DNA from: a bacterium
GTDB lineage: Bacteria; Planctomycetota; Planctomycetia; Pirellulales; UBA1268
Length of the DNA: 64,000 bases
Direction: 5' to 3'
Assembly (NCBI GenBank): GCA_029978085.1
Contig: JAPOJV010000001.1
Location: 2,110 to 66,109 of the forward strand
Shown here: positions 6,506 through 54,819 of the stretch, one piece after another
Numbering within the stretch: position 1 is the stretch's first letter
How the letters are laid out: each line of letters starts with the position of its first letter
Program-made: the position numbers and the translations under genes
Notes under the pieces: generated by a model
Told to the model about the DNA's origin: nothing
Seen by the model: only the letters and a program-made list of their open reading frames with translations
Databases searched by the model: none

Positions 6506-6587
6506 GAAAAAGGTGCCAGCCACCATTTTCGCGAAAGCCTCCGCCACGCTGAGCCGCCCCATGAAAATGGTGGCTGGCACCTTTTTC
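6506..6587. repeat. Inverted repeat, copy 1: 25-bp perfect arms, 32-bp spacer, filling the nuoF-nuoG gap
   Basis: GAAAAAGGTGCCAGCCACCATTTTC (6506-6530) pairs with GAAAATGGTGGCTGGCACCTTTTTC (6563-6587). The same 16-nt core occurs at 23922 and 54720. Confidence 0.9.
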
Positions 6588-6601
6588 GTCGGAGTTCGTT
6601 C

Positions 6602-8239
6602 ATGCCCGTAGTCATCGTCGATGGACAAGAGATCGAGATCGGAGCCGACGAGCGGCTCAACTGCATCGAGGCTGCGCGGCGGGCGGGCAAGGAGATTCCG
6701 CACTACTGCTGGCATCCGGGCCTCTCCGTCGTGGCCAGCTGCAGGATGTGCCTGATCGAGACGGGCCAGCGCGATGCCGCCACCGGCAAGGTCACGATGG
6801 TGCCGAAGCTCGTGCCCGGCTGCCAGACGCCGGTCAAGGACGGCACGGTGATCGTCACCGAGAGCCAGCTCGTGAAGGACAGCCGCGCCCGGGTCGAAGA
6901 GGCGCTCCTCATCGATCATCCGATCGACTGTCCGATCTGCGACAAGGCGGGCGAGTGCCTGCTCCAGGACTACCACTTCGAGCACGGCCAGGCCGAGCGG
7001 CGGGCCGATCTCCATCCATTCACGAGCCGCAAGCGGGACGTCGGCCCCACGGTCACGCTGTTCGTCGATCGCTGCATCATGTGCACCCGGTGCGTGCGGT
7101 TCACCCGCGAGGTGTCAGGCACGTCGGAGTTGATGGTCACGTCCCGTGGCGCAAAGGAAGAAATCGACGTCTTCCCCGGGTTCCCGCTCGACAACAAGCT
7201 CGCCGGCAACGTGGTCGATCTCTGCCCGGTCGGTGCGCTCGGCGACAAGGACTTCCTCTATCAGCAGCGGGTCTGGTTCCTGAAGCGGGAGGCGAACGTC
7301 TGCGGCGGCTGCTCGGCAGGCTGCTCGATCCACACCGAACACAACCAAGACACGGTCTACCGGCTCAAGCCCCGCGAGAACCCGCACGTCAACACCTGGT
7401 GGATGTGCGACGACGGCCGCTACGGCTGGCACCACCTCCACGATCAGTCGCGGGTGCTCGCCGCCGGCCGGCGGCGCGATCTCCGTGGCAACGGCCACGG
7501 CACGCCGGGCGATGCCTTCGAGACGATCGAGTGGGCCGACGTCGTGACGCGGCTCCGCGATGACCTCAAGGCCGCGGGCCGTCTCGCAGTGGCCGTCTCG
7601 CCGATGCTCACGGTCGAAGAGGCCTGGATGCTCTGTGCGATCGCCCGCTCGATCGATCCGGAAGCGTTCCTGTCCCTCGGCCACGTGCCCGTGGTCGGGG
7701 CCGATGAAACCTTCCCCGGCGGCTTCACGATCCGCGCCGAGAAGTGCCCCAACCGCAAGGGTGTCGAGGAAGTGCTCGCCCTCTACGGCGCCGGTGGCCG
7801 CTCGTGGGATGACCTCGTGGCCCATGTCGCCGCCGGCAAGGCCGACGCCGCCTGGGTGACCGGCGGCTATCCGACGCCCTGGATCGACGACGCGACCGCT
7901 GCATCCTTCGCCGATCTCACGTGCCTCGTGGTGCAGGACCTCTTCGAGTCGCCGCTCATGAAGCTCGCCACCTGGCGGCTGCCGGCAGCGGGCTTCGCGG
8001 AGCGGGCCGGCACCTGGGTGAACGTGGCCCACCATGCCCAGAGCTTCGGCCAGGCGATCAAGCCGCCGGCCGGCGTCTGGCCCGAAGGGCGGCTGTTCTG
8101 GAACATGCTCGGCCGCCGCGGCCTCTATGACCCCGTCGGCGTGCGGCAGCAGATCGCCGGGTCGGCCGCCCCCTTCGCCGCGCTCGCCGGCGACGTGCCG
8201 GCCACCGGTGTGGACCTTCGCGTGAGGCAGCTCGCATGA
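6602..8239 (+). CDS. nuoG: NADH-quinone oxidoreductase subunit G (short form, 545 aa)
   Basis: ORF 6356..8239 trimmed to ATG 6602 (MPVVIVDGQEIEI), with GGAG 10 nt upstream. Fe-S motifs CRMCLIE, HPIDCPICDKAGECLLQD and CIMCTRCVRF. Confidence 0.92.
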   Translation: MPVVIVDGQEIEIGADERLNCIEAARRAGKEIPHYCWHPGLSVVASCRMCLIETGQRDAATGKVTMVPKLVPGCQTPVKDGTVIVTESQLVKDSRARVEEALLIDHPIDCPICDKAGECLLQDYHFEHGQAERRADLHPFTSRKRDVGPTVTLFVDRCIMCTRCVRFTREVSGTSELMVTSRGAKEEIDVFPGFPLDNKLAGNVVDLCPVGALGDKDFLYQQRVWFLKREANVCGGCSAGCSIHTEHNQDTVYRLKPRENPHVNTWWMCDDGRYGWHHLHDQSRVLAAGRRRDLRGNGHGTPGDAFETIEWADVVTRLRDDLKAAGRLAVAVSPMLTVEEAWMLCAIARSIDPEAFLSLGHVPVVGADETFPGGFTIRAEKCPNRKGVEEVLALYGAGGRSWDDLVAHVAAGKADAAWVTGGYPTPWIDDATAASFADLTCLVVQDLFESPLMKLATWRLPAAGFAERAGTWVNVAHHAQSFGQAIKPPAGVWPEGRLFWNMLGRRGLYDPVGVRQQIAGSAAPFAALAGDVPATGVDLRVRQLA

Positions 8240-9492
8240 CCGACTACTTGCCTTCGCTCCCCACGATCGTCGCGCTGGTGAAGATCGGCCTGCTCATCGG
8301 CGGCCTGATGACGGCGGCCGCCTACCTCGTGCTCGTCGAACGCTGGATGGCCGCCTGGGTGCAGGATCGCAAGGGCCCCAACCGCGTCGGCATTCCGCTC
8401 ACGAAGGTGCGGCTCTTCGGTCTCGGCCAGCCGCTCGCCGACGGCTTGAAGATCATCCTCAAGGAAGACTTCACGCCCAAGCACGTCGACAAGGTGCTCT
8501 ACACGGCGGCGCCGCTCGTGATCCTGGCCGCGTCGCTGGCGATCTTCGCCGCCATCCCGTTCGGCAGTTCGTTGCCACCGATCCCCGCCCTCGGCCTCGC
8601 CGGCGAGGAGCCGTTGCTCGTGGCGCCCGGCCTCGACGTCGGCGTGCTCTGGGTGTTCGCCCTTTCCAGTATCGCGGTCTACGGCGTGCTCCTCGGCGGC
8701 TGGGCGAGCAACAACAAGTACGGCTTCCTCGGTGGCCTGCGGAGCAGCGCGCAGCTCGTGGCCTACGAGATCCCGCTCGGCCTCGGCCTCTTGGGCGTCG
8801 TGCTCGCGGCCGGCTCGCTCAAGCTCGACACGATCATGAACGCCCAGGCATCGACCGGTGTTTGGTATGCGTTCGCCCAGCCGCTCGGCTTCATCGTGTT
8901 TCTCGTGGCCGCCTTCGCCGAGGCGGCGCGGCTGCCCTTCGATCTCCCGGAGGCCGAGCAGGAGCTCGTCGGCGGCTATCACACCGAGTATTCGGGCATC
9001 AAGCTCCTGCTCTTCCTCGTGGCCGAGTTCCTCCACATGGTCACGGCGGCCTTCCTGATCGTGATCATGTTCCTGGGCGGCTGGCACCTCTGGGGTGTCA
9101 CGGGCTCCGGCCCGGTCGAAACGTGGACGGTGGCCCTGCTCCGGTTCGCCGTTCTCTCCGCCAAGATTCTCGGCGTGATCCTGTTCTTCATGCTCGTCCG
9201 CTGGAGCTGGCCGCGGTTTCGGTTCGACCAGCTCATGAACCTCGCCTGGAAGGTGATGCTGCCGCTGGGGCTCGTGAACCTCGTCACGGTGGCGGCCATC
9301 GAGGAATTTCGGCCGCAACTGGTGGCGGCGGTAGGCGAGGGGGCGGCGAAGACGGCCGCGATCGCCATCCCGTGGGTGGTCTTCTTCGTGGGCTGGATCG
9401 CGGCCGGCATGCTCACGCCTTCGGGCACCGACAACACACCGATCCGCACCCACGGCCCGCTCGACATCGAACACGAACTGGTGGAGGTCTGA
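8236..9492 (+). CDS. nuoH: NADH-quinone oxidoreductase subunit H
   Basis: Polytopic ND1-like protein with the motif EAEQELVGGYHTEYSG. ATGA overlap with nuoG. Confidence 0.93.
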   Translation: MTDYLPSLPTIVALVKIGLLIGGLMTAAAYLVLVERWMAAWVQDRKGPNRVGIPLTKVRLFGLGQPLADGLKIILKEDFTPKHVDKVLYTAAPLVILAASLAIFAAIPFGSSLPPIPALGLAGEEPLLVAPGLDVGVLWVFALSSIAVYGVLLGGWASNNKYGFLGGLRSSAQLVAYEIPLGLGLLGVVLAAGSLKLDTIMNAQASTGVWYAFAQPLGFIVFLVAAFAEAARLPFDLPEAEQELVGGYHTEYSGIKLLLFLVAEFLHMVTAAFLIVIMFLGGWHLWGVTGSGPVETWTVALLRFAVLSAKILGVILFFMLVRWSWPRFRFDQLMNLAWKVMLPLGLVNLVTVAAIEEFRPQLVAAVGEGAAKTAAIAIPWVVFFVGWIAAGMLTPSGTDNTPIRTHGPLDIEHELVEV

Positions 9493-9493
9493 C

Positions 9494-10027
9494 ATGAAGC
9501 CCACCGATCCCGCGATCACCTGGCTGGAAGAGAAGCCGCTCGGCCTCGCCGAACGGCTCTACCTGCCCCTCTTCGTCGGCGGCCTGGCGACGACCGCCCG
9601 GCATCTCGTGAGCCCCAAGGTCACGGTGAGCTTCCCCGAGCAGCGGCCGACGGTGGGCAACCCGCTCATCTACCGCGGCGTGCATCGGCTCAATCGCGAC
9701 GAGGAGGGCCGCGTGAAGTGCGTGGCCTGCTTCCTTTGCGCCACCGCCTGCCCCGCCCACTGCATCGACATCGTGGCCACCGAGAGCCCCTGGCCCGACC
9801 GTGAGAAGTATCCCGAGAGCTTCCAGATCGACGAACTGCGGTGCATCTTCTGCGGCATGTGCGAGGAGGCCTGCCCGGTCGATGCGATCGAGCTCACGAG
9901 CCTCTTGGACCTCACGGGCAAGAGCCGCGAAGAGATGATCTTCGATAAGGAGAAGCTCTTGAGCGTGTACGACATGACGAAGGATGCGGAGCCCATGAAG
10001 TCGGCGTCGCTCGGAGGCACGCTGTGA
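9494..10027 (+). CDS. nuoI: NADH-quinone oxidoreductase subunit I
   Basis: Two 4Fe-4S ferredoxin motifs, CVACFLCATACP and CIFCGMCEEACP. Confidence 0.93.
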   Translation: MKPTDPAITWLEEKPLGLAERLYLPLFVGGLATTARHLVSPKVTVSFPEQRPTVGNPLIYRGVHRLNRDEEGRVKCVACFLCATACPAHCIDIVATESPWPDREKYPESFQIDELRCIFCGMCEEACPVDAIELTSLLDLTGKSREEMIFDKEKLLSVYDMTKDAEPMKSASLGGTL

Positions 10028-10842
10028 TCGCCGTCGCGCTTCCTTCGCCGGGCGTCCTGCTCGCCGGCGCCGTCACCGCCGCCGCCGTGAGTCTCTGGCT
10101 GCTCCTGCCGCGCGGCCGCGACAGTCGCCCTGCCCGCTGGCTCGGCGGTCTGCTCGGTGCCGCCGCGCTCGCCGGCTTCGTGCTCACCGGCCGCCGCCTC
10201 GGCGGGCTCGGCGAGGAGGCCGTGTTCCTGATCGTGTCGCTCGTGGCCGTGATCTCGGGCGCGGCCACGATCGTGTCACGGTCGCCGGTCTACTCGGCCA
10301 TCTGGTTCGCCCTCGCCCTCGCCGGCGTGTCGGGCGTGCTGCTCGTGCTCGGCGCCCAGTTTCTCGGGGTGGCCACGATCGTGGTCTATGCCGGGGCGAT
10401 CCTCGTGATGTTCCTGTTCGTGCTCATGCTCGCCCAACCGGCCGGCCTCGCCCCCTACGACCGCGTCTCCAACGAGCCGCTGCTCTCGGCGATCGCCGGC
10501 GCCACGCTGCTCGGCCTGCTCACGCTCTCGATCGGCCGGCTCTCGGCCGACCCGTCGTGCTGCCAGATGCCGTCGAAGGCCGCCGCGATGGCCGCCGGCA
10601 CGGCGGGAACGAGCGTCGACGCGGCGCATGCAGGGGATGCGATCGATGCCGCAATCGCGACCGATCCGCTCGCGGCCGATCAGGTGGCCCGGCTCGGCGG
10701 CGAACTCTTCGGCCGGCACCTGCTCGCGGTGGAGGCTGCCGGCGTGCTCCTGCTCGTGGCGCTCGTCGGCTCGATCGCCGTGGTGAGCCGCCATGGCGAC
10801 CCGTCGGGCGAACTGGCCCCGGCCCGGAGGGCCGCATCATGA
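10024..10842 (+). CDS. nuoJ: NADH-quinone oxidoreductase subunit J (long, 272 aa)
   Basis: GTG start overlapping the nuoI stop. Hydrophobic ND6-like sequence (VVYAGAILVMFLFVLML) in the expected operon position. Confidence 0.85.
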   Translation: MIAVALPSPGVLLAGAVTAAAVSLWLLLPRGRDSRPARWLGGLLGAAALAGFVLTGRRLGGLGEEAVFLIVSLVAVISGAATIVSRSPVYSAIWFALALAGVSGVLLVLGAQFLGVATIVVYAGAILVMFLFVLMLAQPAGLAPYDRVSNEPLLSAIAGATLLGLLTLSIGRLSADPSCCQMPSKAAAMAAGTAGTSVDAAHAGDAIDAAIATDPLAADQVARLGGELFGRHLLAVEAAGVLLLVALVGSIAVVSRHGDPSGELAPARRAAS

Positions 10843-11282
10843 ACCAACTGGCACTCCTGCAAAACGCGCTCGTCGTCGGCGCGATCCTGTTCTCGCTCGG
10901 CCTCGTGGGCATCCTCACGCGGCGAAACCTGATCGTGATGTTCCTCTCCGCGGAGCTGATGCTGCAGGGCATCTCCGTGAGCCTCGTGGCCTGGAGCCGC
11001 TACCACGGCGACTTCGGCGGGCAGGTACTCGTGATCTTCGTGCTCACCGTGGCGGCCTGCGAGGCGGCGGTGGCCCTCGTGTTCGTGCTCCAGGCCTTTG
11101 CCCGTACGGGGCGGCTCGACTCGGCAGCCTGGCAGTCACTCCGCGAATCCAATCTGCCGCGACGGGTCGATCACGAGCTACCGGCCATCGACACCGTGCC
11201 CCCCTCGTTCCCGCGGCTCACGCCCGCCGGTGTGCTGCCTGCCGCCGACGAAAACGACCTGCTCCAGCGCGAGCACGTCTGA
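10839..11282 (+). CDS. nuoK: NADH-quinone oxidoreductase subunit K with a 47-aa hydrophilic C-terminal tail
   Basis: ORF 10557..11282 trimmed to ATG 10839 (ATGA overlap with nuoJ). ND4L core MNQLALLQNALVVGAILFSLGLVGILTRRNLIVMFLSAELMLQG. Confidence 0.88.
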   Translation: MNQLALLQNALVVGAILFSLGLVGILTRRNLIVMFLSAELMLQGISVSLVAWSRYHGDFGGQVLVIFVLTVAACEAAVALVFVLQAFARTGRLDSAAWQSLRESNLPRRVDHELPAIDTVPPSFPRLTPAGVLPAADENDLLQREHV

Positions 11283-11304
11283 CCGCACCGCTCCACCGAT
11301 CACC

Positions 11305-13551: not shown

Positions 13552-13591
13552 GCCACACGCCCGGCATTCCTCCCCGAACACCATCCGTCGC

Positions 13592-23233: not shown

Positions 23234-23234
23234 G

Positions 23235-23459: not shown

Positions 23460-23903
23460 CTACTTTGCGGCCGGCTCGAAGCCCTTCTCGATGCTGCCGA
23501 AGACGAGCGTGACCTTCTCGTCATCCGACGCCTTCTCGACCTTGCCCTTGCAGTTGTTGCAGCAGAAGCCGACCTCGGCGTCGCCGATGGCGAGCTCCGT
23601 GCCGGCCTTCACCGGTCCGCCGCTGAACGGGCAGCCCTTCTGCTTGAGCTGGCCGGTGGCCACGAGCTGCTGGTGGGCCTTGGCCGCGAACGGCGCCGAG
23701 TCCTTCTCGAACTTGCCCGAGCAGTTGCCGCAGCAGAAGTAGACCTTGCCACCGGCGAAGTCGGCGGCCTTCTCGGGATTGCACTTGGCACCGGAGACCG
23801 GGCACTTCGCGTCCTTCGGCTCTTTCACGGCCGACATGGCGACCGACGAGCACACGACGGCGACGACCAACGCGACGAAAGGCAGGGCGTGACGATTCTT
23901 CAT
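23460..23903 (-). CDS. Secreted protein with two YHS/TRASH-like cysteine motifs (putative metal binding)
   Basis: ORF 23460..24218 trimmed to ATG 23903 (MKNRHALPFVALVVAVVCSSVAMS signal). Repeats CPVSG...GGKVYFCCGNCSGKF and CPFSG...EVGFCCNNCKGKV. AGGAG lies 9 nt upstream. Confidence 0.6.
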   Translation of the reverse strand: MKNRHALPFVALVVAVVCSSVAMSAVKEPKDAKCPVSGAKCNPEKAADFAGGKVYFCCGNCSGKFEKDSAPFAAKAHQQLVATGQLKQKGCPFSGGPVKAGTELAIGDAEVGFCCNNCKGKVEKASDDEKVTLVFGSIEKGFEPAAK

Positions 23904-23921: not shown

Positions 23922-24003
23922 GAAAAAGGTGCCAGCCACCTTTTGTCTGGAACGGGTCCGTGTCACCTGCGGCGACAGGCAAAAGGTGGCTGGCACCTTT
24001 TTC
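23922..24003. repeat. Inverted repeat, copy 2: 24-bp perfect arms, 34-bp spacer
   Basis: GAAAAAGGTGCCAGCCACCTTTTG (23922-23945) pairs with CAAAAGGTGGCTGGCACCTTTTTC (23980-24003). It lies between the MFS gene stop and the YHS-like gene start. Confidence 0.9.
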
Positions 24004-24091: not shown

Positions 24092-25366
24092 TCACCGCCG
24101 CCGGGGCTCGGGGAGCCCCGTGGCCACAGCGGCCCCGGTCGCGATCACCGCCGCCCCGGCCAGGAAGACCGGCCGAAAGCCGACCGCATCGACCATCCAG
24201 CCGACGAGGGGCGAGCATACGAACGGGGCCGCGAGAGCCGCCCCGACGATGCTGACGTAGCGGGCGTGATCGCGAGGCCGGGGCGCGAGTTCGAGCGCAT
24301 AGTTCGTGAAGATCTGGAGTGAGATCGGATTGAGCCCGAGCATCAGGTAGACGATCCAGAACCAGTCAGCCGCGAGTGCGTGGGGGGCGAGCGACAGGCC
24401 AATGACCACCAGCGGCACGAGCGATGAGAGGGCCACGAGCCAGATGAGCACGATACGAGTGCCGCGGCGGTCGGCAGACGGCCCGGCGACGAGGCTCACG
24501 CATCCCGTCGACACGTTTTGAACGACGACCCACGTGAGCAGGCTCATAAGCGGCGTGCCGAGCCGGTCGCGGGCGAATGCCTGATAATGAGGGAACAGCA
24601 TGATCACGCCGGAGAAGCAGGCGGCGACGACCGCCAGCCGCACGAGCGCCCGATCCGCCATGAGCGTGTACCGCCATTCGGCGACGGCCTGTCTGAAGCG
24701 GGCCGCGACTCCCGACTCCCGCACAGCCGTGGCCTGCGTGAGCGGCGCGTCGGGCGGCTCATCGAGAAACGCCGGCACGATCGCCGCCAGGGCGAAGAAG
24801 GCGGCGGTCACTGCGAAGATCTTCGTGAAGCCGTCGGGCTCGGCGAGCCAGGGTCGCAGGAACAGGATCGCGGCGAGGATGGCGAGCAGGCTGCCCAGGG
24901 CGGCATTCACGACGAGCGACCGGCCGCGATGCCCCGGAGCGATGAGCTTGCCCTGCAGGGCGGCGGCGACGAGCTGCGAGAGACCGTTGCAGCCCGAGAA
25001 CGTCGCGTAGAGCACGAGGAACACCGCGGCGAGCAGAGCCGGCTGGGACCGCAGCGGTGTCCAGGCGCAGGCGAGGAGGGCGAAGCAGGCAGCCTTGGCG
25101 ACCGCCGCAGCCACGAGCAGCCACTTCTTGATTGGCCGACGGCCGACGGCCCCTGCGACAAACAGCGGTGGCAGGCTCTGGCCGCCACGGTTGAGCACGG
25201 GCAGGAGGCCGCGGAGCGTGCCCGAATCGACCACGGCGTCGAGCACGGCCGGCATGATGATCGTCTCGGTCTTGAAGATCCAGCCGACGCGGACGATCAC
25301 ATGGTAGAGCTCGAGACAGAGCGTGTTGCGCACCTCTCGCGGGCCGCGTGCGCTGGGCTCGCTCAT
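24092..25366 (-). CDS. MFS transporter
   Basis: 424 aa with about 12 hydrophobic segments and the typical MFS two-halves organisation. Confidence 0.75.
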   Translation of the reverse strand: MSEPSARGPREVRNTLCLELYHVIVRVGWIFKTETIIMPAVLDAVVDSGTLRGLLPVLNRGGQSLPPLFVAGAVGRRPIKKWLLVAAAVAKAACFALLACAWTPLRSQPALLAAVFLVLYATFSGCNGLSQLVAAALQGKLIAPGHRGRSLVVNAALGSLLAILAAILFLRPWLAEPDGFTKIFAVTAAFFALAAIVPAFLDEPPDAPLTQATAVRESGVAARFRQAVAEWRYTLMADRALVRLAVVAACFSGVIMLFPHYQAFARDRLGTPLMSLLTWVVVQNVSTGCVSLVAGPSADRRGTRIVLIWLVALSSLVPLVVIGLSLAPHALAADWFWIVYLMLGLNPISLQIFTNYALELAPRPRDHARYVSIVGAALAAPFVCSPLVGWMVDAVGFRPVFLAGAAVIATGAAVATGLPEPRRR

Positions 25367-30930: not shown

Positions 30931-31087
30931 GGTAGCCCGGTCACGGTAGCCCGGTCACGGTAGCCCGGTCACGGTAGCCCGGTCACGCCGTGACCGGAAA
31001 GCCTGTCACGGCGTGACAGGACCACACCGGAAAGTCTGTCACGGCGTGATAAACCCACTTGAGCCCGTCACGGAGTGACGGGCCTAC
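30931..31087. repeat. REP-like cluster 1: four tandem 14-mers GGTAGCCCGGTCAC followed by four palindromes
   Basis: Tandem units at 30931, 30945, 30959 and 30973. Palindromes: CCGGTCACGCCGTGACCGG (30979-30997), CTGTCACGGCGTGACAG (31003-31019), a degenerate copy (31036-31050), and GCCCGTCACGGAGTGACGGGC (31063-31083) followed by CTAC. Confidence 0.9.
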
Positions 31088-32127: not shown

Positions 32128-32252
32128 GTAGGCCCGTTGCTCCGCAACGGGCAAGCAAGTGGCCCGGTCACGCCGTGACCGGAGAAACAGCCCGTCACGG
32201 AGTGACGGGCCTCCGACCGGCATGCCTGTCACGGCGTGACAGGACCACCTAC
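32128..32252. repeat. REP-like cluster 2: four palindromes with GTAG/GTGG heads
   Basis: GTAG followed by GCCCGTTGCTCCGCAACGGGC (32132-32152). GTGG followed by CCGGTCACGCCGTGACCGG (32164-32182). GCCCGTCACGGAGTGACGGGC (32190-32210). CCTGTCACGGCGTGACAGG (32225-32243) followed by CTAC (32249-32252). Confidence 0.9.
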
Positions 32253-32320
32253 CACGCAGCTTGCCTAGATTGCCGCCGTAGCACAGAGACGTTGTAGTCG
32301 GCTCAAGCTGCCCGACCGGC

Positions 32321-41923: not shown

Positions 41924-43630
41924 ATGACCCCGTTCGGCCGCCGTTCGAACGCCTCTCGCCGCCTGCTGTCGCTGGCGTGCACCGCCCTCGTCGTCGCACC
42001 GCAGGCTCCCGCCATGCGGACCGCGCGGGCCCAGTGCTGTGGTGACGCCGTCGTCGCCCCCGCTCCGGTCGCCACGCAGACCTACCGCCTCGACTACCAG
42101 ACCGTCTACGACGAGCAGCAGGTCACCGCCTACCGCATCTCGCAGGAGACCGTCTACGACTCGAAAACCTACACCGTGCAGAAGCCGGTCTGGGAGACGC
42201 AGACGCAGGAGCGTCGTTACACCGTGCAGCGTCCCGTGTGGGAAACGCAGACCCGCGAGGAGCGGACCACGGTGATGAAGCCCGTGTACGAGACGCAGAT
42301 CCAGGATCGCAGCTACGACGTCACCCGTGACGTAATCGAGACGGCGACCCGCGAGGAGCAGTACACGGTGATGAAGCCTGTGTACGAGACCGTGATGCAG
42401 CAGCAGGTCTCAACCGTCCGCAAGCCGATCTACGAGACGAGTGAGCGGGAGCAGGCCTACACCGTCACCGAGCCGGTCACCCAGATGCGGACCGCCTACT
42501 CCGTCGGCAGCCAGGCCGTTGACACCGTCACGCCCGTCGTCACGCCGGGCACGACGTCGCTCGGCTGGGTGCCCGCCAGCTACGCCATCGACCCCTCCAC
42601 GGGTCTCGCCGTCATGCAGCGGGGCGGCTGGGTGTGGCAGATGAATCCCGGCGCGGTCGTCAACCAGGTGAACCGCGTCTACCAGCCCACCTACACGCCG
42701 GTGCAGGTGCCTGAGACGACCTACGTCAACCGCGTGGTGACGCAGAAGGTGCCGGTGCAGACGGTCCGCTACGTCGATGAGCAGGTCGTCCAGCAGGTGC
42801 CCGTGCAGACCATGAAGATGGTTGCCGAGACGGCGACCCGTCAGGTGCCCGTGCAGACCGTCCGCAAGGTGGTCGAGCGGGTCGAGAACAAGGTGCCGGT
42901 CACCGTCTGCCGGATGGTGCCCGAGGAACAGGTCCGCCAGGTGCAGATGCAGGTGATGAAGTACGTCACCGAGGAAAAGGTCGAGCCGGTGCAGGTGCAG
43001 GTGATGAAGTACGTCACCGAGGAGCGGACGATGCAGGTGCCGCGGGTCGTCGAGAAGCGGACGCCCTACACCTACACAGTGCGGATGCCGCGGACGGTGG
43101 TCACGAAGGTGCCGCTCGACCCGTGTGGCAATCCGATTCCGGCTGCGGCGATGACCGCCGCTCCGGCTGCAGCCTCGCGTCCGACGTCGGCCCCTGCTCC
43201 GGCGATCTCTACCACCGACTCTGGCCCCCTGAAGACGTTCAGCGACCGGCCGGCCGACGCGCCGAAGAAAGTCGAAGAGGGCTGGGGCGCGTCGAATCTC
43301 AACCATGTTGACCCTGCCACGAGCTCCGCGGGCACGGTGCGGGCCGAGAAGCCGGTCGTCGATTCGGCTCAGGCTCCGAGCAGCGAGCAGTCGCTGAAGA
43401 AGATCGAGACGATTCCGGCGCCGGCCGCGAAGGAGCCGGGAGCGGCCCCGCAGACGCCGAGTCAGTCGGCGCCGAAGGCAGCCCCGCAGCCGGCGGTCGA
43501 GCAGTCGCCGACGGTCGCCCCGCCGGGTCCGGCTGTGTATCCGCCGCCGCCGGCCTCCGATCCCCGCGACGTGCCGGCTGCCGAGACCTCGGGCCGCAGC
43601 CTCACCGGCCGCCACGGCCACACGACGTGA
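41924..43630 (+). CDS. Secreted YTV-repeat protein with a Pro/Ala-rich C-terminus
   Basis: ORF 41846..43630 trimmed to ATG 41924 (signal peptide MTPFGRRSNASRRLLSLACTALVVAPQAPA). Tandem repeats of about 18 aa, YTV(Q/M)KPV(W/Y)ETQ..E(R/E)...; a 27-bp perfect direct repeat at 42949 and 42997. Confidence 0.75.
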   Translation: MTPFGRRSNASRRLLSLACTALVVAPQAPAMRTARAQCCGDAVVAPAPVATQTYRLDYQTVYDEQQVTAYRISQETVYDSKTYTVQKPVWETQTQERRYTVQRPVWETQTREERTTVMKPVYETQIQDRSYDVTRDVIETATREEQYTVMKPVYETVMQQQVSTVRKPIYETSEREQAYTVTEPVTQMRTAYSVGSQAVDTVTPVVTPGTTSLGWVPASYAIDPSTGLAVMQRGGWVWQMNPGAVVNQVNRVYQPTYTPVQVPETTYVNRVVTQKVPVQTVRYVDEQVVQQVPVQTMKMVAETATRQVPVQTVRKVVERVENKVPVTVCRMVPEEQVRQVQMQVMKYVTEEKVEPVQVQVMKYVTEERTMQVPRVVEKRTPYTYTVRMPRTVVTKVPLDPCGNPIPAAAMTAAPAAASRPTSAPAPAISTTDSGPLKTFSDRPADAPKKVEEGWGASNLNHVDPATSSAGTVRAEKPVVDSAQAPSSEQSLKKIETIPAPAAKEPGAAPQTPSQSAPKAAPQPAVEQSPTVAPPGPAVYPPPPASDPRDVPAAETSGRSLTGRHGHTT

Positions 43631-46866: not shown

Positions 46867-47005
46867 GACGCAGGCTCCAGAGAACGGATGCGGAGAGACC
46901 GATTGCTCGCGTGAGAATACCCGCGTGGGGCCGCGAACCCAACGGTTCGTTGGACGTGCCCTTGGCCCTGGGATAGATTCTGCGATCGCTGAGAGGAATT
47001 GCCCA

Positions 47006-47971: not shown

Positions 47972-48036
47972 GCAGCCCGGTCACAGTAGCCCGGTCACGC
48001 CGTGACCGGAAGTCTGTCACGGCGTGACAGACCCAC
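47968..48036. repeat. REP-like cluster 6
   Basis: The GTAG at 47968-47971 contains the TAG stop. Two 14-mer heads (GGCAGCCCGGTCAC, AGTAGCCCGGTCAC), then CCGGTCACGCCGTGACCGG (47991-48009) and CTGTCACGGCGTGACAG (48014-48030) followed by CCAC. Confidence 0.88.
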
Positions 48037-48043
48037 GTGGCGG

Positions 48044-48649: not shown

Positions 48650-48665
48650 GTCGCGTCGCTCCTCC

Positions 48666-49010: not shown

Positions 49011-49301
49011 CTCCCACCTCCGTGTGGAACCCAAGCTCGGATGAGCCGGACAGGTGGAAGGCGTCCGTGCCTTTCACCGGCTCTTTTCTTTCGGCTTCGC
49101 GAGCCCCGGGCAGACAGTGCCCGCGGGCCGGCCGGGCGACCTCGACGCGACAGGCACACCTTCACGTTTCCGCGGGCCGCCCGCAGCGGAACACTGCCGC
49201 GGGCCCGGGCGGCAGACTCCCGCTGACCCGCAAAGCCCTCCCCTCTTGCCAAGCCCGCGGCAGCCGATCACAGTCTGGTGACCCGATCCTTCGTATCCGC
49301 C

Positions 49302-51461
49302 ATGGCCAAAACCAAGCAACGCCCGAGCAAAGCCGCGAAGACCGCCCCTGGTCAGCCCACGGAGCCGGAGGCAAACGGTCAGCCCGCGGCTGCGGCCAAG
49401 CAGCCCGCCAAGCGACGAGCCACCGCCCAGACGCTGGCCGCCGGGCAGCGCGATATTTCGGTGAGCGAGTTCTTCGCCAAGAACCGCCACCTGCTCGGCT
49501 TCGACTCGCCCCGCAAAGCCCTGCTCACGAGCGTGAAGGAGGCCGTGGACAACTCCCTCGACGCCTGCGAAGAGGCGGGCATCCTGCCGGAGATCTGGGT
49601 GCGGATCGAGCAGGTGGGTGAGAGCGGCTCCCGCTACCGCATGAGCGTGCAGGACAACGGCCCCGGCATCGTGGCCAAGCAGATCCCGCTCATCTTCGGC
49701 AAGCTCCTCTACGGCTCGAAGTTTCATCGGCTGCGGATGAGCCGCGGTCAGCAGGGCATCGGCATCTCGGCGGCCGGCATGTACGGCGTGCTCACCACCG
49801 GCAAGCCGGTGAAGATCATCTCCAAGATCGACGCCAAGCATGCCGCCCACTATTCCGAACTGCGGATCGACACGAAGACCAACCAGCCGGAGATCCTCAA
49901 CGGCAAGGGCGAGGGCGTCGACATCCCGTCCGGCAAGGGCGGCGTCGAGCTGATGAAGAAGCACTCGATCGAGTGGGTCGCCGAAAACGACAAGGGCGAC
50001 GCCATCGACCACGGCACCCGCGTGACGATCGAGATGGAGGCGAAGTTTCAGCGGGGCCGCGGCAGCGTCGAGGAATACCTCGAGCAGACGGCGATCTCGA
50101 ATCCCCACGCCCGCATCCATTTTCAGGGGCCCGATGGCCCCGAGCGAATCCTCGAACGCTCGACCGAGGACCTGCCGCCGGAGCCGAAGGAGATCAAGCC
50201 GCATCCCTACGGCGTCGAGCTCGGCCGGCTGGTGACCATGCTCCAGGAGCATCCCAAGCTCACCCTCGCCCAGTTCCTCACGCAGTCGTTCTCGCGGGTC
50301 TCTCACGGCACGGCCAAGAAGATCTGCGACACGGCGAAGCTCTCGACACGGGTGACCACCGGCAAGCTCGGCCGCGGCGAGGCCGATGCGCTCTTCAAGG
50401 CGATCCAAGAGACCAAAATCCCGCCGCCGGCCACCGATTGCGTGGTGCCGATCGGCGAACAGCGGCTGCTCGCTGGCCTGCGGCAGGTGGTGCCGGGCGA
50501 GTTCTTCACGGCGGCAACTCGGCCGCCGGCCGTCTACCGCGGCAATCCGTTCGTGATCGAGGCGGCGCTCGCCTATGGCGGCGGCGTGGCCGCCCAGAAA
50601 ATCAGCCGCGAGGCCCTCGGTGAACTGGCCGGCGAGAGCGACGCCCGCAGCCTGCGGCAGTTCCTCACCACGACGTTCAGCGGCCTCGGCGCCGAGGCGG
50701 CCGACAAGATTCTCGCCGAGGCCCAGCTGGCACCGCGGCAGTCGCCATCCAAGCTCAAGAAGCCGCAGCTCGACGCCTTGCACGGTGCGATGCAGCATGT
50801 GAGTGCCGACGATGGCCAGAGCATGAACGTGCTTCGCTACGCCAACCGCGTGCCGCTCCAGTTCCAGCCGGCGGCCTGTGCCGTCACGCAGACGATGACC
50901 TCGACCAACTGGCGGGCCTACGGGCTCTCGCAGTCGCGGGGCGGCCTGCCGAGCGGCCCGGTCACCGCGATGGTGCACGTGGCGAGCGTCTGGGTGCCGT
51001 TCACGAGCGAGTCGAAGGAGGCGATCGCCTCTTACCCGGAGATCCAGAAGGAGATCCGGCTCGCGCTCCAGGCGGTGGGCCGCAAGCTCGGCATGTACAT
51101 GCGGCGGCGGCTGCGGGTGGCCCAGGAGGGACAGCGGCGGAGCATCTTCCTCCGCTACCTCGGCGAGGTGGCCTCGGCGGTCTCGCAGATCAACGGCTCC
51201 GACCGGGCAGGCCTCTACGATCAGCTCCTCGCCGTGGCCAAGAAGAAAACGGCCGAGGCCGACGTGAAGCTCGACGACCGCGGCCGCCCGATCCAGGAAG
51301 AGGAAGACCTCGAGCTCGGCGACAACTGCATCATCGTCCCGCAGACGGTGCCGGGCTCAGGGACGACTGCCGGACCGCCGGAGGGTGAGGCAGACGAGAA
51401 GCCCACCCGCACACGCAAGCCAGCGGCGACGAAGCCGGCCAAGTCCCGCCGTCGGAAATAG
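49302..51461 (+). CDS. top6B: DNA topoisomerase VI subunit B
   Basis: ORF 49278..51461, ATG 49302. Bergerat-fold motifs EAVDNSLDACEE, VQDNGPGIV and SRGQQGIGISAAGMYG. H2TH-like KEIKPHPYGVELGRL and a transducer region (ANRVPLQFQ...VHVASVWVPFTSESKEAI). Basic C-terminal tail. Confidence 0.85.
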   Translation: MAKTKQRPSKAAKTAPGQPTEPEANGQPAAAAKQPAKRRATAQTLAAGQRDISVSEFFAKNRHLLGFDSPRKALLTSVKEAVDNSLDACEEAGILPEIWVRIEQVGESGSRYRMSVQDNGPGIVAKQIPLIFGKLLYGSKFHRLRMSRGQQGIGISAAGMYGVLTTGKPVKIISKIDAKHAAHYSELRIDTKTNQPEILNGKGEGVDIPSGKGGVELMKKHSIEWVAENDKGDAIDHGTRVTIEMEAKFQRGRGSVEEYLEQTAISNPHARIHFQGPDGPERILERSTEDLPPEPKEIKPHPYGVELGRLVTMLQEHPKLTLAQFLTQSFSRVSHGTAKKICDTAKLSTRVTTGKLGRGEADALFKAIQETKIPPPATDCVVPIGEQRLLAGLRQVVPGEFFTAATRPPAVYRGNPFVIEAALAYGGGVAAQKISREALGELAGESDARSLRQFLTTTFSGLGAEAADKILAEAQLAPRQSPSKLKKPQLDALHGAMQHVSADDGQSMNVLRYANRVPLQFQPAACAVTQTMTSTNWRAYGLSQSRGGLPSGPVTAMVHVASVWVPFTSESKEAIASYPEIQKEIRLALQAVGRKLGMYMRRRLRVAQEGQRRSIFLRYLGEVASAVSQINGSDRAGLYDQLLAVAKKKTAEADVKLDDRGRPIQEEEDLELGDNCIIVPQTVPGSGTTAGPPEGEADEKPTRTRKPAATKPAKSRRRK

Positions 51462-51476
51462 CCGGCGGCATGCGCC

Positions 51477-51616
51477 GTAGTCCACATGCTCCGCATGTGG
51501 CCCACGGCTCAAACACCACAGACCCGAACTACTCCCCTGCGGGCCCGCGAACCTCCGACTGAATAGCCGGCCTCCCGGCCTTCATACTCCAACCGCACGC
51601 GGAGTGTGCGGACTAC
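51477..51616. repeat. REP-like cluster 7: two inverted GTAG-headed hairpins about 92 bp apart (REPIN-like)
   Basis: GTAG-T-CCACATGCTCCGCATGTGG (51477-51500) and CCGCACGCGGAGTGTGCGG-A-CTAC (51593-51616). Different stems, the same CTCCG/CGGAG centre. Confidence 0.8.
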
Positions 51617-51741
51617 GGACGGCAACGCCACTCGGCCCGCCGCTATGACCGCGTGCACAGCGTGGCCTTCGCGATCAGCTTTCCGGCCAGCTCAACTCCC
51701 CTCTTGGCTTACGCCTCGGGCCTGGAGGAACGGCGATGCGT

Positions 51742-52650
51742 TCAGTTGGCGTCGTCGCCAACGGAGATTTTCGCCTCGGGCAGACGCTCCTGAAGCCGGC
51801 GGACCGACTCGGCATCGACGGCCGTGCGCTGCAACGAGAGCTCGCGCAGGGCGGCGAGGTCAGCCAGTTGGCTGATGCCCGCGGCTGATACGGCCGTCGA
51901 GCCGATCGAGAGCCAGCGGAGCCGACGCAGGCCGGCGAGCGTGGCCAGGCCCGCATCGGTGAGCCGCGTGTCGGCGAGATTCAGCCATTCGAGATCGCCG
52001 AGACCCGCGAGATGAGCGATGCCGTCATCACCGACCGGCACCCGCCACAGGTTGAGCCGACGCAGCGACCGGAGCTGACCAATCGGCTCGAGCGCCGCAT
52101 CATCGAGCTGCACCGACTCGCTGAGATCCAGATCCTGTAGGCCGTCGAGTGCGACCAAATGCGCAAGGCCGGCGCCGGTGACGGCGGCGCGGGCCAGCCG
52201 CAGCCGCCGCAGCTTCGGAAACTTTGCCACGATGGCGAGGTCGTCGTCCCGCACCAGCGTCTGGGCCAGCGTCAGTTCCTCGAGGTTCACGAGCGCCGCG
52301 ATCGCCGCCAGGCCGTCGCCGCCGACCCAGAGATGATCGAGCATGAGCACCCGCAGCTTCACAAGCGGCGCGAGCGAGCCGAGGCCGGCATCGTCCACGG
52401 TCGTGGCGCCCGACTTGCCGGAGAGCCGCAGCGCCACGAGGTCGGTGAGACCGGCGAGCGTGGCCAGGTCGGCATTCGTAACGGTGCAGGCCCGCAGATC
52501 GAGATCGACCACGGCTCCGGCTTCGTTCCGCTTGGCAACGCCCCCCGCCGCCACGAACCGGGCCACGGTGTCGGCCGGCTCCGCTGCCTGCGCGGCATGC
52601 GCAGGAAGGACGAGAATGACTGCCGCGAGCACTGCACCCAGCCGTTTCAT
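51742..52650 (-). CDS. Secreted leucine-rich-repeat protein
   Basis: ORF 51742..53154 trimmed to ATG 52650 (MKRLGAVLAAVILVLPAHAAQA). Repeats of about 24 aa, L..L.L....v.D.gLa.La.L. One-nt TGATG overlap with the upstream gene. Confidence 0.8.
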   Translation of the reverse strand: MKRLGAVLAAVILVLPAHAAQAAEPADTVARFVAAGGVAKRNEAGAVVDLDLRACTVTNADLATLAGLTDLVALRLSGKSGATTVDDAGLGSLAPLVKLRVLMLDHLWVGGDGLAAIAALVNLEELTLAQTLVRDDDLAIVAKFPKLRRLRLARAAVTGAGLAHLVALDGLQDLDLSESVQLDDAALEPIGQLRSLRRLNLWRVPVGDDGIAHLAGLGDLEWLNLADTRLTDAGLATLAGLRRLRWLSIGSTAVSAAGISQLADLAALRELSLQRTAVDAESVRRLQERLPEAKISVGDDAN

Positions 52651-54026
52651 CAGGCGACCTCCCAGCCCGGGCGATACTGCTTGCGGATGAACCGAGCAGC
52701 CTCCGGGCAGTTCCTGGCCGTGAGCGCCGCCGCATCCCACTCCAGCCGCTTGCCGACACGATAGGCCACCGAGCCGAGCAGCACAGCCTCCGACAATGGG
52801 CCGGAGTAGCCGAAGTGACAGGTCGTCGGCGTACCCTCGCGGCAGGCGGCGATCCATTCGGCGTAGTGGCCGATCGACTTCGGGATCGACTGCGGCGGTG
52901 GCGTGAATCCGGCGAACTTCTCCGCCGGAAAGAGCCGGTAGCCGCCGTAGTCGGCGAACAGCATCCCGTCGCGGCCAACGAACATCACGCCGTTGCCCGG
53001 CACCTTCTGCCCGGCCACCTCCTTCGGGATCCGGTTGCCGTCGTACCACGTGAGCGTCACCGGCGGCTGCTCGCCGCGGGCGGGGAACTCGTACCGCACG
53101 ACCAGGCCCACGGGGCAGGTCTCGGGATCGACCTCGGCCCCCTCGGCCGCACACGCCGTCGGGTATTTCAGGTCAAGCGCCCAGAAGGGCAGGTCCATAT
53201 AGTGGCAGCCCATGTCGCCGAGCGTGCCGTTGCCGAAATCCCAAAACCGCCGCCAGTTCGCCGGGTGATAGGCACCGGCCGCGAACGGCCGAACCGGCGC
53301 CGGGCCGAGCCAGAGATCCCAGTGCAGCGTCGCCGGCGGCTCCTGCCCGCCTTCGGGCCGCTTGCCGCCCCCCCACGACTTGCCGACCCACACATGCACC
53401 TCCTGCACCGGGCCGATCGCCCCGGCACGGATGATCTCCACGACGCGGCGGTAGTTGTCTTCCGCGTGAATCTGCGTGCCCATCTGCGTGACCACGCCCG
53501 CCTTGGCCGCCTCCTCCGCGACGAGCCGTGCCTCGGCCACCGTGTGGGCCAGCGGCTTCTCGCAGTAGACGTGCATCTTCTTGCGGATGGCCCGAATCGA
53601 GGCCGGGGCATGGTGGTGGTCGGCCGTGCTCACCACGACCGCATCGACCGTGCCCACCTCCTTCTCGATCAGCTCACGGTAGTCGACGTAGGTGCGGACG
53701 TCGGGGAACCGGGCCGGCCGCTCCTTCTCGACCTGCTGGTCGTCCTCCTTCACCGTGTATACCTGCGGCTTCGTCTGCCGAGCCATAAACGTGTCGTCGA
53801 CGTCACACATCGCCACGATTTTCGCGCCCGTCACGGCAGCCACTCCGCCGACGTTGTCGGCCGCGCGATTCGCCACGCCGATGCAGGCGATCTGTAGCAG
53901 GTCGTTGGCCCCCAGCGCCGGCCGGGCCGAAAGCCCGCTGAACACGCCCCCCGACAATCCGGCGAGGCCGGCCGAGAGCGTCTTGACCGCCGTACGGCGG
54001 GAAACCGTGACCCGTGATGCCATCAT
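52650..54026 (-). CDS. Gfo/Idh/MocA-family oxidoreductase with a Tat-like signal
   Basis: SRRTAVKTLSAGLAG signal, IACIGVANRAADN, VYCEKPLAH. Confidence 0.88.
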   Translation of the reverse strand: MMASRVTVSRRTAVKTLSAGLAGLSGGVFSGLSARPALGANDLLQIACIGVANRAADNVGGVAAVTGAKIVAMCDVDDTFMARQTKPQVYTVKEDDQQVEKERPARFPDVRTYVDYRELIEKEVGTVDAVVVSTADHHHAPASIRAIRKKMHVYCEKPLAHTVAEARLVAEEAAKAGVVTQMGTQIHAEDNYRRVVEIIRAGAIGPVQEVHVWVGKSWGGGKRPEGGQEPPATLHWDLWLGPAPVRPFAAGAYHPANWRRFWDFGNGTLGDMGCHYMDLPFWALDLKYPTACAAEGAEVDPETCPVGLVVRYEFPARGEQPPVTLTWYDGNRIPKEVAGQKVPGNGVMFVGRDGMLFADYGGYRLFPAEKFAGFTPPPQSIPKSIGHYAEWIAACREGTPTTCHFGYSGPLSEAVLLGSVAYRVGKRLEWDAAALTARNCPEAARFIRKQYRPGWEVA

Positions 54027-54080
54027 GAAACTCCTGGGAGGGAATGCTGTCGAGCAAGGAGGCTGCTGATTCGATGCCGA

Positions 54081-54782
54081 CTACAGCTCCTTGATGAACA
54101 CGTTGCGGACGTGCATCGGTGCGCCGTGGGTCTGAATCTGGATGGGGCCCGTGGCGGGCAGCGGCTTCCCCTTCTCGAAGAAGTTCGCCAGCGGCGCCGC
54201 ATCGACCACCACCTGCCCATTGAGTTCGACGGTCACCTGCTCGCCGACCATCCTGATCTGCGTCGTGTTCCACTCACCGACGGGTTTGTCGGCCTTCACG
54301 AGCGGCCATTTGCCGGGTGCATCGCCGGGGTTGTTCCACAGGCCACCGGAGCCTTTCTGGCAGCCGTGCTTGAAATCCCGTTCACACTGTGGATCCCAGA
54401 TCTGCACCTGCGGATTTCCGCGGAGGTAGATGCCGCTGTCAGCGCAAGGCTTCGGAAGCATCCACTCGACGAGCAGTTCGAAGTCACCGTAGTCGCGATC
54501 GGTCGTGAGAAACACGCCGTGGCCGTCGCTCACGATCACGCCGTCCTGCACCGTCCAGTGGGCAGCCAGATCGTCGTTCCATTGTTTCTGCCGAGTCTCG
54601 TGCTCCGCAGGCGTGCCTGCCGCCTCCGCCCGTGGATCCAGATGAGGCCGACCCCGCCAGCCGGCCAGGTCACGGCCGTTGAAGAGCGGCGTAAAGCCAG
54701 CCGGTGGCTCCGCCCCAACAAAGGTGCCAGCCACCAAATCCAGGCAAGCCAGCACAAACACAGCGCAGCGAAGTCTCGTCAT
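54081..54782 (-). CDS. DUF1080 (3-keto-disaccharide hydrolase family) secreted protein
   Basis: ORF 54081..54854 trimmed to ATG 54782 (MTRLRCAVFVLACLDLVAGTFVGA). FTPLFNGRDLAGWRG, WTVQDGVIVSDG and YGDFELLVEW. Confidence 0.85.
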   Translation of the reverse strand: MTRLRCAVFVLACLDLVAGTFVGAEPPAGFTPLFNGRDLAGWRGRPHLDPRAEAAGTPAEHETRQKQWNDDLAAHWTVQDGVIVSDGHGVFLTTDRDYGDFELLVEWMLPKPCADSGIYLRGNPQVQIWDPQCERDFKHGCQKGSGGLWNNPGDAPGKWPLVKADKPVGEWNTTQIRMVGEQVTVELNGQVVVDAAPLANFFEKGKPLPATGPIQIQTHGAPMHVRNVFIKEL

Positions 54783-54819
54783 CAACGCATCTTCTCCAGA
54801 TTTGGTGGCTGGCACCTTT
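54720..54819. repeat. Inverted repeat, copy 3: 21-bp perfect arms, 58-bp spacer, straddling the DUF1080 start codon
   Basis: AAAGGTGCCAGCCACCAAATC (54720-54740, inside the CDS, encoding DLVAGTF on the minus strand) pairs with GATTTGGTGGCTGGCACCTTT (54799-54819, beginning 1 nt after the upstream gene's stop). Confidence 0.9.

Follow-up and report, generated by a model that had tools for sequence, protein, structure and literature searches.

Three hairpin-forming inverted repeats in a planctomycete genome are best read, with a probability that we put at about 0.85, as members of a palindromic element family of (freshwater) Planctomycetota that resembles REPINs, the paired and inverted repetitive extragenic palindromic (REP) sequences of other bacteria, and that is associated with a REP-associated tyrosine transposase (RAYT). 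Under this reading, they are nonautonomous REP-like doublets of the REPIN or miniature inverted-repeat transposable element (MITE) type. The DNA in question, called the window below, is a stretch of 64,000 nucleotides from a member of the Pirellulales (contig JAPOJV010000001.1), and the copies lie at 6507-6586, 23923-24002, and 54720-54821 (copies 1, 2, and 3). All three contain an exact core of 13-16 nt in inverted orientation, and each unit follows the same general plan: A4-6, GGTGCCAGCCACC, inner arm, variable spacer, inner-arm complement, GGTGGCTGGCACC, and T4-6. An earlier, sequence-only reading of the window had described the three copies and considered a MITE-like element, an intercistronic attenuator, or a protein-binding site. 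The first of these proposals is supported in a specific form, in that the arms are the terminal inverted repeats (TIRs) of a Y1/HUH unit of ~0.83 kb and that orthologous sites are found filled and empty. The same arms bracket a transposase gene in relatives, and the copies are therefore assigned to a known kind of genomic parasite and not to a new regulatory signal; the small hairpin-forming elements are probably mobile.

The unit whose ends the arms form encodes, in related genomes, a Y1/HUH transposase, probably of the RAYT type, with a length of 220-235 residues. Two loci with a gene between the arms were found through their unpaired arms (L086, 4946-5632, and L088, 709-1374), and their proteins contain a Y1_Tnp domain in which NHWHL is the HUH motif and LYQGRF the tyrosine motif. 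The score for Pfam PF01797 (Y1_Tnp) is 61.5 bits (cut-off 23), NCBIfam has NF047646, REP-associated tyrosine transposase, as its best and only match (65.5 and 70.1 bits, below the equivalog cut-off of 80), and the only match in the PDB is 4ER8, E. coli TnpA-REP (E = 0.004). To remove the selection bias of a core-based search, homologues were next found by a protein search with the L088 protein, which is independent of the core, and those examined in their genomic context were picked by the length of their contigs. Arms bracket the gene in 4/4 different genomic contexts (L191-L195; proteins P0124, P0131, P0133, and P0140, with 73-81% identity), and the transposase is thus bracketed in six independent contexts, four of them reached through the protein alone. 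To the left of the open reading frame of ~700 nt stands A4-6-GGTGCCAGCCACC-AAATYTGGGYAAYTTG followed by about 35 nt, and to its right 10-25 nt are followed by CAGATTNCCCARATTT-GGTGGCTGGCACC-T4-6. Homologues at 57-63% identity (L196-L199) keep this architecture and have variant cores that covary (GGTGCCTGGCACC / GGTGCCAGGCACC, GGTGACAGTCACC / GGTGACTGTCACC, and GGTGGCAGCCACC), and one of the variant-core transposases has a short doublet of the same variant nearby. The placement of the arms on either side of a transposase gene leads us to read the short hairpins as REPIN/MITE-type, nonautonomous derivatives of the RAYT unit. On their sequences, they look like products of internal deletion; the shortest forms, with AAATCTGGGTAATTTG-CAAATTACCCAGATTT between the cores (L029 and L088), amount almost exactly to a direct fusion of the unit's two ends. 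The sequence-only reading had stated that its view would be undermined if the core proved to be part of a known insertion sequence (IS) terminal repeat with an intact transposase nearby. What was found comes close to this outcome and departs from it on two points: the window itself has no transposase, and the unit is not a catalogued IS. As a separate observation, a conserved TATACAT stands about 8-12 nt upstream of each transposase ATG in L191-L198 and is a possible -10 promoter element or regulatory site.

In the mechanism that we propose, the transposase would recognize the small hairpin of each arm in single-stranded DNA (GGTG, a 5-nt loop, and CACC, extended by the A/T runs), would cut and rejoin the DNA without a fixed target duplication, and the copies would later be lost precisely or decay. 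Catalysis by the transposase and a single-stranded intermediate are suggested by analogy with E. coli TnpA-REP and IS200/IS605 TnpA.

The family extends well past the window. GTDB reference genomes were scanned for two cores 40-70 nt apart, a design that meets forms outside this range only incidentally, and this gapped-core scan returned at least 110 further loci in many metagenome-assembled genomes (MAGs) of Planctomycetota. The listed loci carry the labels Pirellulales, Planctomycetaceae, and Planctomycetia, and most sample labels look like lake MAG series. Several MAGs give 4-5 loci each among the matches listed, and the window has 3 copies in 64 kb; forms with core-to-core distances of 32-33 and 37 nt were met at L029, L088, and L100. 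The counts given below for positions and in-frame copies rest on the loci listed from the exact-core scan, and the search for copies defined by their inner arms with degenerate cores used loci chosen for exact cores as well. Solo cores are rare outside doublets. When the copies were extracted and aligned, the listed loci fell into subfamilies whose spacers recur at different loci. The dominant subfamily, A5-core-AAATCTGGGCAA..(spacer usually 47 nt)..TTRCCCAGATTT-core-T5, includes copy 3. Subfamily B has a conserved 59-nt spacer with two inner hairpins at no fewer than eight different loci; copy 2, whose spacer is a deletion variant of the 59-nt spacer, has its subfamily-B relatives at L005, L044, L047, L083, L095, L016, L034, L098, and L009. 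A third group is specific to the nuoF-nuoG locus and includes copy 1, L015, L010, and L057. The subfamily-B spacer also deserves a remark of its own: at L005, L044, L045, L047, L083, L095, L016, L034, L085, L098, L102, L108, and L092 it contains two conserved inner hairpins, GTCGCC-loop-GGCGAC and CCCCGGCC-loop-GGCCGGGG, with loops that vary, and at L092 the stems differ yet remain paired. The whole subfamily-B element would form a three-way junction.

Compensatory variation in the arms, which the sequence-only reading had reported from three copies, is upheld by the family. Arm positions covary well beyond shuffled controls in 117 distinct copies; at inner position +2, 92% of copies have a Watson-Crick pair, where 500 shuffles reach 71% at most, and the pairs comprise 85 of type AT and 23 of type TA, counts that are inflated by kinship between copies. 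L015 has a compensatory change within the core itself (GGTGGCAGCCACC / GGTGGCTGCCACC). Pairing of the palindrome ends 5-6 nt outside the core, and therefore the A/T runs belong to the palindrome.

Comparison of orthologous sites shows that copies come and go. L015, L010, and L057 share synteny with the window over the nuo operon, and the relatives used for the nuoF junction are an unbiased sample from metagenomes. The nuoF-nuoG site is filled in the window, L115, L015, L010, and L057 and is empty in L111, L114, L116, and L117, which have a clean TGATG stop/start overlap (..GGAGC.CA.TGATGCC). A neighbor-joining tree of nuoF places L111 and L114, both empty, within the filled lineages, with L116 and L117, also empty, as the outgroup. 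Because the filled sites have a homologous spacer in common, the simplest history is one old insertion followed by at least two precise losses, with repeated gain as the alternative. At nuoG-nuoH, the window is empty (an overlapping GCATGAcc junction), L015 is filled, and L010 has an unrelated spacer. At the junction of the Gfo/Idh/MocA oxidoreductase gene (Gfo below) and the DUF1080 gene, L021 and L051 share the arrangement of the window, L200 has a decayed left arm, and L201 has no element and an unrelated intergenic spacer and signal peptide. Filled and empty orthologous sites, for which the sequence-only reading had proposed a comparison with related genomes, exist at the nuoF-nuoG, nuoG-nuoH, and Gfo-DUF1080 junctions. 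The target-site duplications (TSDs) that it had thought possible were not found as a general or fixed-length feature: flanking direct repeats match shuffled pairs (mean of the best 5.4 versus 5.2), with the exceptions of the nuoF-nuoG locus and L106, where overlapping genes were split.

At nuoF-nuoG, the left target duplicate, TCGTCGGAGcccactgATG (6488-6506, plus strand), contains the final codons of nuoF with the stop codon, together with the start at which nuoG formerly overlapped, and the right duplicate, TCGTCGGAGttcgttcATG (6586-6604, plus strand), supplies the Shine-Dalgarno (SD) sequence and start codon of nuoG. The same flank duplication is present in L115 and L015, and it is a likely substrate for precise deletion. 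The other exception, L106 (~2795-2945), is a parallel case in which the element stands between 25-nt flank duplicates (GATGGAAGCCTGGTAAAGCGATGAA / GATGGAAGCGTGGTGAAGCGATGAA) where the stop and start of a DUF1553-type and a DUF1501-type gene overlap. Two further kinds of sequence were noticed at junctions. Short tandem duplications of 10-30 nt run across the boundary of element end and flank, for example TGGCACCTTTTTC twice, at L093 (~6447-6475), L075 (~4975-5005), L104 (~7727-7750), L086 (5735-5775), L007 (~6010-6040), L053 (~270-300), L016 (~2830-2870), and L100 (2588-2625); they look like slippage at the hairpin base rather than target-site duplications. A different small hairpin, GTGGAAAAAGCCATCC(C/A)TGGCCTTTTTCCAC, occupies the site of the element between nuoF and nuoG in L112 (~3860-3900) and L113 (~1687-1727) and could be a remnant of the element after internal deletion (AAAAAG..CCA...CTGG..CCTTTTT).

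Within the window, all three copies were confirmed on reading the sequence, as were the differing ends of the inner arms (ATTTTC, TTTTG, and AAATC), each of which has its exact complement in its own copy. The 16-mer AAAGGTGCCAGCCACC has 6 exact matches in the window and 10 matches with up to 3 mismatches, where 0.44 are expected and 0/100 shuffles get to 10; the copies also rank among the longest inverted repeats that a repeat finder reports for the window. No further or variant-core copies are present in the window. Near-matches to the core with 1-3 mismatches at 9076-9091 and 42889-42904 stand singly and without a partner inside coding sequence (nuoH and another gene) and are probably due to chance. 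Copy 1, between the nuoF stop codon (6502-6504) and the nuoG SD/ATG, comprises an A5 run (6507-6511), the core GGTGCCAGCCACC (6512-6524), the inner arm ATTTTC (6525-6530), a 32-nt spacer, GAAAAT (6563-6568), the core complement (6569-6581), and a T5 run (6582-6586). Copy 2, between a major facilitator superfamily (MFS) gene and a gene for a small secreted Cys-rich protein, both on the minus strand, comprises an A-run (23923-23927), the core (23928-23940), TTTTG (23941-23945), a 34-nt spacer, CAAAA (23980-23984), the core complement (23985-23997), and a T-run (23998-24002). Copy 3, a doublet of the dominant subfamily, stands between the Gfo gene and the DUF1080 gene, overlaps both, and comprises AAA (54720-54722), the core (54723-54735), AAATC (54736-54740), a 58-nt spacer, GATTT (54799-54803), the core complement (54804-54816), and a T-run (54817-54821). 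The folding energies of the full elements, a check that the sequence-only reading had suggested, are those of stable structures: on both strands, each copy forms a single long hairpin, the energies lying between -45 and -62 kcal/mol and the z-scores between -6 and -10. A narrower range, -58 to -62 kcal/mol, is also given for the three copies. The arms of copy 1 are also small hairpins when taken singly (GAAAA.GGTG / CCAGC / CACC.TTTTC), and each arm of copy 2 is a perfect 8-bp hairpin (AAAAGGTG/CACCTTTT). Folded as DNA, one arm of copy 1 or 2 by itself, like the solo arm next to the L086 transposase gene, gives a hairpin of 7-9 bp with a 5-nt loop (dG -6.1 to -7.0 kcal/mol, z about -3.8), and the arm of copy 3 alone forms 4 bp only (z -1.3).

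The genes that flank the copies show how the elements are accommodated. Pfam confirms nuoF, nuoG, the MFS gene, Gfo/Idh/MocA, and DUF1080 as named in the sequence-only reading, and the gene that was called YHS-like there has no Pfam match and encodes the small secreted Cys-rich protein mentioned above. That reading had also noted an unusually clear GGAG before each downstream gene. The motif is indeed present at all three copies, and its explanation at copies 1 and 3 is a different one. The GGAG before nuoG (6591-6594, plus strand, ahead of the ATG at 6602-6604) is the native SD sequence from the last codons of nuoF, and it is clear there because these codons hold it and were duplicated with the target. 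From the sequence of the junction, copy 1 appears to have split the overlapping TGATG junction of nuoF and nuoG, and the 18-19 nt duplication to have kept the nuoF stop as well as the nuoG SD and ATG. Copy 2 sits in a 5' leader or intercistronic gap; the Cys-rich gene (minus strand) has its ATG at 23903 and its SD GGAG at 23916-23913, and the stop of the neighboring MFS gene is at 24092-24094. The GGAG before the DUF1080 gene (54797-54794, minus strand, with an ATG at 54782 or a TTG at 54785 as the start codon) is part of the inner-arm consensus of the element, AAATCTGGAGAAGATG.

Copy 3 was described as lying between two genes, and this holds in part: the Gfo stop codon overlaps its T-run, the SD and start codon of the DUF1080 gene lie inside what had been taken as spacer, and the far arm is coding. 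On the minus strand, the order is the Gfo stop TAA (54822-54820), the 5' arm, the element-borne SD, the start codon, signal-peptide codons, and the 3' arm. The DUF1080 gene (54081-54782, minus strand; PF06439, the 3-keto-disaccharide hydrolase family) has its SD, start codon, and signal peptide encoded within copy 3, and the 3' arm (54720-54740) is signal-peptide coding sequence for LVAGTF. With the arm-encoded part, the signal peptide reads ..CLDLVAGTFVGA|EPP, also read as MTRLRCAVFVLACLDLVAGTFVGA|EPP; the arm-encoded VAGTF is found in the closest DUF1080 orthologues only. The protein is 100% identical to a database protein (P0001) with the N-terminus MMTRLRC. Copy 3 thus appears, as judged from these overlapping signals, to supply the SD, start codon, and signal peptide of the gene. 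Effects of the copies on transcription or translation of nuoG, the Cys-rich gene, and the DUF1080 gene (through the hairpin, termination, or processing) are possible as by-products.

A similar use of the element recurs in the family. Among the matches listed, 18 of the 110 gene-proximal copies have the frame of the downstream gene open through the element, an in-frame start no more than 18 nt upstream of the A-run, and a hydrophobic stretch, lipobox, or similar feature directly after the T-run, compared with 1/110 in each control frame. The in-frame loci (L004, L017, L023, L036, L040, L056, L063, L067, L078, L080, L082, L084, L087, L096, L097, L101, L107, L108, and L109) include at least nine unrelated genes, and in them the element comes after the start codon or charged n-region and ahead of the hydrophobic core, lipobox, or Tat motif, as in MKK-[element]-LFLCVAVAATAVA|QEP at L067 and MKHKK-[element]-LLLAVAGC at L017. 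One gene common to five species (L036, L056, L063, L078, and L097) has an in-frame copy whose spacers differ by 18 nt, and orthologues with different spacer lengths (47 versus 65 nt) differ by a multiple of three. In several DUF1501-type genes, the start codons to choose from are all located before or within the element, which is followed by a twin-arginine motif. The cores are free of stop codons in all six frames, and in every frame one end of the element encodes K-K, K-R, or K-G and the other LF, FF, or PF, a coding capacity that would fit tolerance at the n-/h-region boundary of a signal peptide destined for removal. The alternative that in-frame copies are excised or bypassed rather than translated was considered and found unsupported, as every identified signal-peptide copy is stop-free in the downstream frame, a test that is partly circular in that the open frame was itself a selection criterion. 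The apparent concentration of in-frame copies in signal peptides is a feature that we have not seen described. A speculative and rather unlikely extension is that the family is more than a tolerated parasite and, in Planctomycetes, repeatedly supplies the 5' ends of genes for secreted proteins or regulates them through its hairpin; behind it stand the stop-free cores, the residues encoded by the ends, an inner arm with GGAGAAGATG, and the complete SD, start codon, and signal peptide at DUF1080. In practical terms, gene callers are expected to misplace starts at such loci, and the start codons and signal peptides of many planctomycete secreted proteins would be miscalled if the element is ignored.

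The positions of the copies relative to genes bear on whether the host has selected them. Genes in all loci were called from codon usage by a simple program that recovers the nuoA-N operon of the window. Among the matches listed, 91 copies have two called neighbors; these run in the same direction at 67 copies, diverge at 14, and converge at 10, and the corresponding background for neighboring genes in these loci is 374, 89, and 99. The claim that copies always lie between co-directional genes fails for the family as a whole, and since the proportions are about those of the background, it was an impression from a small sample. The companion claim, that copies always stand just 5' of an SD-ATG, does not survive either: some copies separate convergent or divergent genes, and others lie in frame within signal peptides. 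What does recur is proximity to gene ends. The upstream stop codon usually abuts the A-run (median stop-to-core distance of 7 nt), and a start codon often follows within about 25 nt after the element. Both stop codons abut the element in convergent pairs, and both starts do so in divergent pairs.

This proximity would also suit a host-selected RNA element, such as an attenuator, a bidirectional intrinsic terminator, or a stabilizer of mRNA 3' ends, that sits between cistrons to adjust their expression and for which mobility is secondary. The GC-rich base of the stem between A5 and T5, the very stable fold, the abutment of one stop (or, in convergent pairs, of both), the retention of the nuoF-nuoG copy in five genomes, and reports that REPs elsewhere act as terminators or stabilizers (PMC3733652) are all consistent with it. 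However, the sense and antisense strands of 65 co-directional copies are equal in stability and G-U content (mean -51.8 versus -52.3 kcal/mol; 93 versus 108 G-U pairs), which gives no indication that the transcribed strand is under selection. The gene contexts are those of the background and include 14 divergent intergenic regions, where there is no upstream cistron; at least 18 copies lie inside 5' coding sequence; and the nearest relatives, L111 and L114, do with a clean, empty nuoF/nuoG overlap. A consensus terminator scan, which expects a loop of 3-8 nt, makes no call at copies 1 and 2, and element loops of 26-58 nt are far beyond that range. Rfam 15 has no match in the window at the gathering threshold, permissive scans returning only generic microRNA-precursor hairpins far below threshold. 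Finally, the arms delimit a transposase unit. The stem is strong and a U-run comes after it, and partial termination is possible, but an RNA element as the explanation of the family is unlikely, and the attenuator of the sequence-only reading finds no support in RNA-level selection.

Binding of the core by a protein is a different matter depending on the protein. By analogy, the transposase is the likely binder, and to this extent the proposal of a protein-binding site stands. A host factor, such as a nucleoid or topology protein that binds cruciforms or binds as a dimer (compare the bacterial interspersed mosaic elements, BIMEs, of E. coli), could account for an exactly conserved core beside diverged spacers and for the variable spacing of half-sites, and host-factor roles have been proposed for REPs generally (PMC3733652). 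Yet half-site spacings of 32 to 68 nt and beyond are ill-suited to a simple dimer, solo cores are seldom seen outside doublets, and the core variants track transposase lineages, as expected of a cognate enzyme-site pair. No candidate host factor emerged from any analysis, and we consider this explanation very improbable. A classical MITE, derived from an IS with a DDE transposase and moved by cut-and-paste with a fixed TSD, would likewise have terminal inverted repeats, small size, high copy number, and a gene-proximal distribution. A fixed TSD is absent, the flanking direct repeats exceeding the shuffled level at only two loci, where overlapping genes had to be duplicated; the sole coding units bracketed by the arms carry a Y1/HUH and not a DDE enzyme, and the compensatory changes in the arms fit recognition of structure rather than of TIR sequence, which leaves such a parentage hardly credible. 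Two further identities were tried and rejected. A sigma-54 promoter had been considered for TGGCAC in the right arm, where the flanks do not conserve the GC needed at -12, and an integron attC site is at odds with flanking genes that are core genes (nuo) and occur in all orientations, with no GTTRRRY core sites seen on reading.

The REPIN-like, transposase-linked reading that we prefer has its own difficulties. Within one genome the spacers of the copies have strongly diverged, and several insertions are common to species at about 80-85% nucleotide identity, and therefore recent activity is unsupported. A5/T5 next to a GC-rich stem and the tight abutment of stop codons (the median of 7 nt) would suit a terminator-like host function. 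The arms do not have the GTAG (or CGTC) tag of the tagged REP super-families, and the NCBIfam RAYT model is matched below its equivalog cut-off. The perfect conservation of the core in our sample is partly a matter of ascertainment, since the loci came from an exact core match, and the core at L200 is decayed. A tblastn search of the window found no transposase gene for this or the second palindrome family described below, so that a cognate enzyme in the window's own organism is assumed.

The second family in the window is a separate one of classical GTAG/GTGG-tagged REP palindromes, which do belong to the tagged REP super-families, at 30960-31040, 32150-32260, and 62005-62052, for example GTAGCCCGGTCACGCCGTGACCGG with the inverted partner ..CCTGTCACGGCGTGACAGGACCAC, arranged in dimers or clusters. 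The sequence-only reading had kept the three hairpins apart from these palindromes for want of a GTAG head, and rightly so: an alignment of 77 dominant-family copies and all flanks has no GTAG or CGTC next to the arms, which places the family outside the tagged REP super-families.

The outcome for this stretch of DNA is that three conspicuous hairpins, one of them in the middle of the complex I operon, find their explanation as selfish, transposase-linked DNA and not as regulatory code, a reading that guards against over-interpreting such hairpins as attenuators or SD-linked signals. The filled and empty sites at nuoF-nuoG and Gfo-DUF1080 are also clean natural comparisons for effects of the hairpin on operon expression.

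Known systems resemble the family to different degrees. Correia/NEMIS and other bacterial MITEs are likewise small TIR elements beside genes, are co-transcribed as strong hairpins, and can donate expression signals, but their target duplication is TA (or fixed in another form) and their parents are of the DDE type, neither of which applies here. Palindromic repeats of 70-150 nt, among them the Rickettsia palindromic elements (RPEs), are known to stand in frame in genes, where they add 20-30 residues and leave the gene intact (PMC3733652). These and other intragenic REPs have their counterpart in at least 18 of the 110 listed copies that appear from sequence to be open in frame; in contrast to RPEs, which have no identified transposase, the present family has one, and its in-frame copies concentrate at the charged/hydrophobic boundary of signal peptides. 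A closer relation is offered by the "TIRtrons" of Di Nocera et al. (2013), in which untagged TIRs that form dimeric repeat families stand on either side of RAYT-like genes (PMC3733652); the same paper cites the planctomycete Rhodopirellula baltica as rich in tyrosine transposase genes with flanking repeats. TIRtrons and TIRYT-associated families share with our elements the RAYT-like gene with long TIRs unrelated to GTAG REPs, some of their TIRs are self-complementary, and some form moderately abundant families organized as dimers. The family described here differs in that its core, in DNA or RNA spelling, is in no paper of the literature collection that was searched and in that it appears to be more abundant and wider across species than most TIR families described there.

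The REPIN-RAYT systems of P. fluorescens SBW25 and of E. coli (REP/TnpA-REP) provide the comparison from which our reading takes its name. REPINs have two conserved inverted sites, a less conserved spacer in which length and pairing are important, compensatory changes, and a RAYT gene nearby (PMC3116915). In such systems, the RAYT gene is present once and passes on vertically, and REPINs number tens to hundreds per genome. The present elements differ in their untagged arms with A5/T5 runs, in the host phylum, in a transposase that falls under the NCBIfam RAYT equivalog cut-off, and in the single arm of the dominant subfamily, which is only a 4-bp hairpin. The likenesses are broader: inverted conserved sites with a variable spacer and compensatory changes, copies that are mostly extragenic and apparently many per genome, a Y1/HUH gene flanked by the same sites, no target duplication, long-lived and vertically shared insertions, and, in copies 1 and 2, a single arm that is a short imperfect palindrome like a REP (about 20-40 nt). 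REPIN/RAYT-type systems, which have been studied mainly in Gammaproteobacteria, are in this way extended to uncultured freshwater Planctomycetota in an untagged form bounded by A/T runs.

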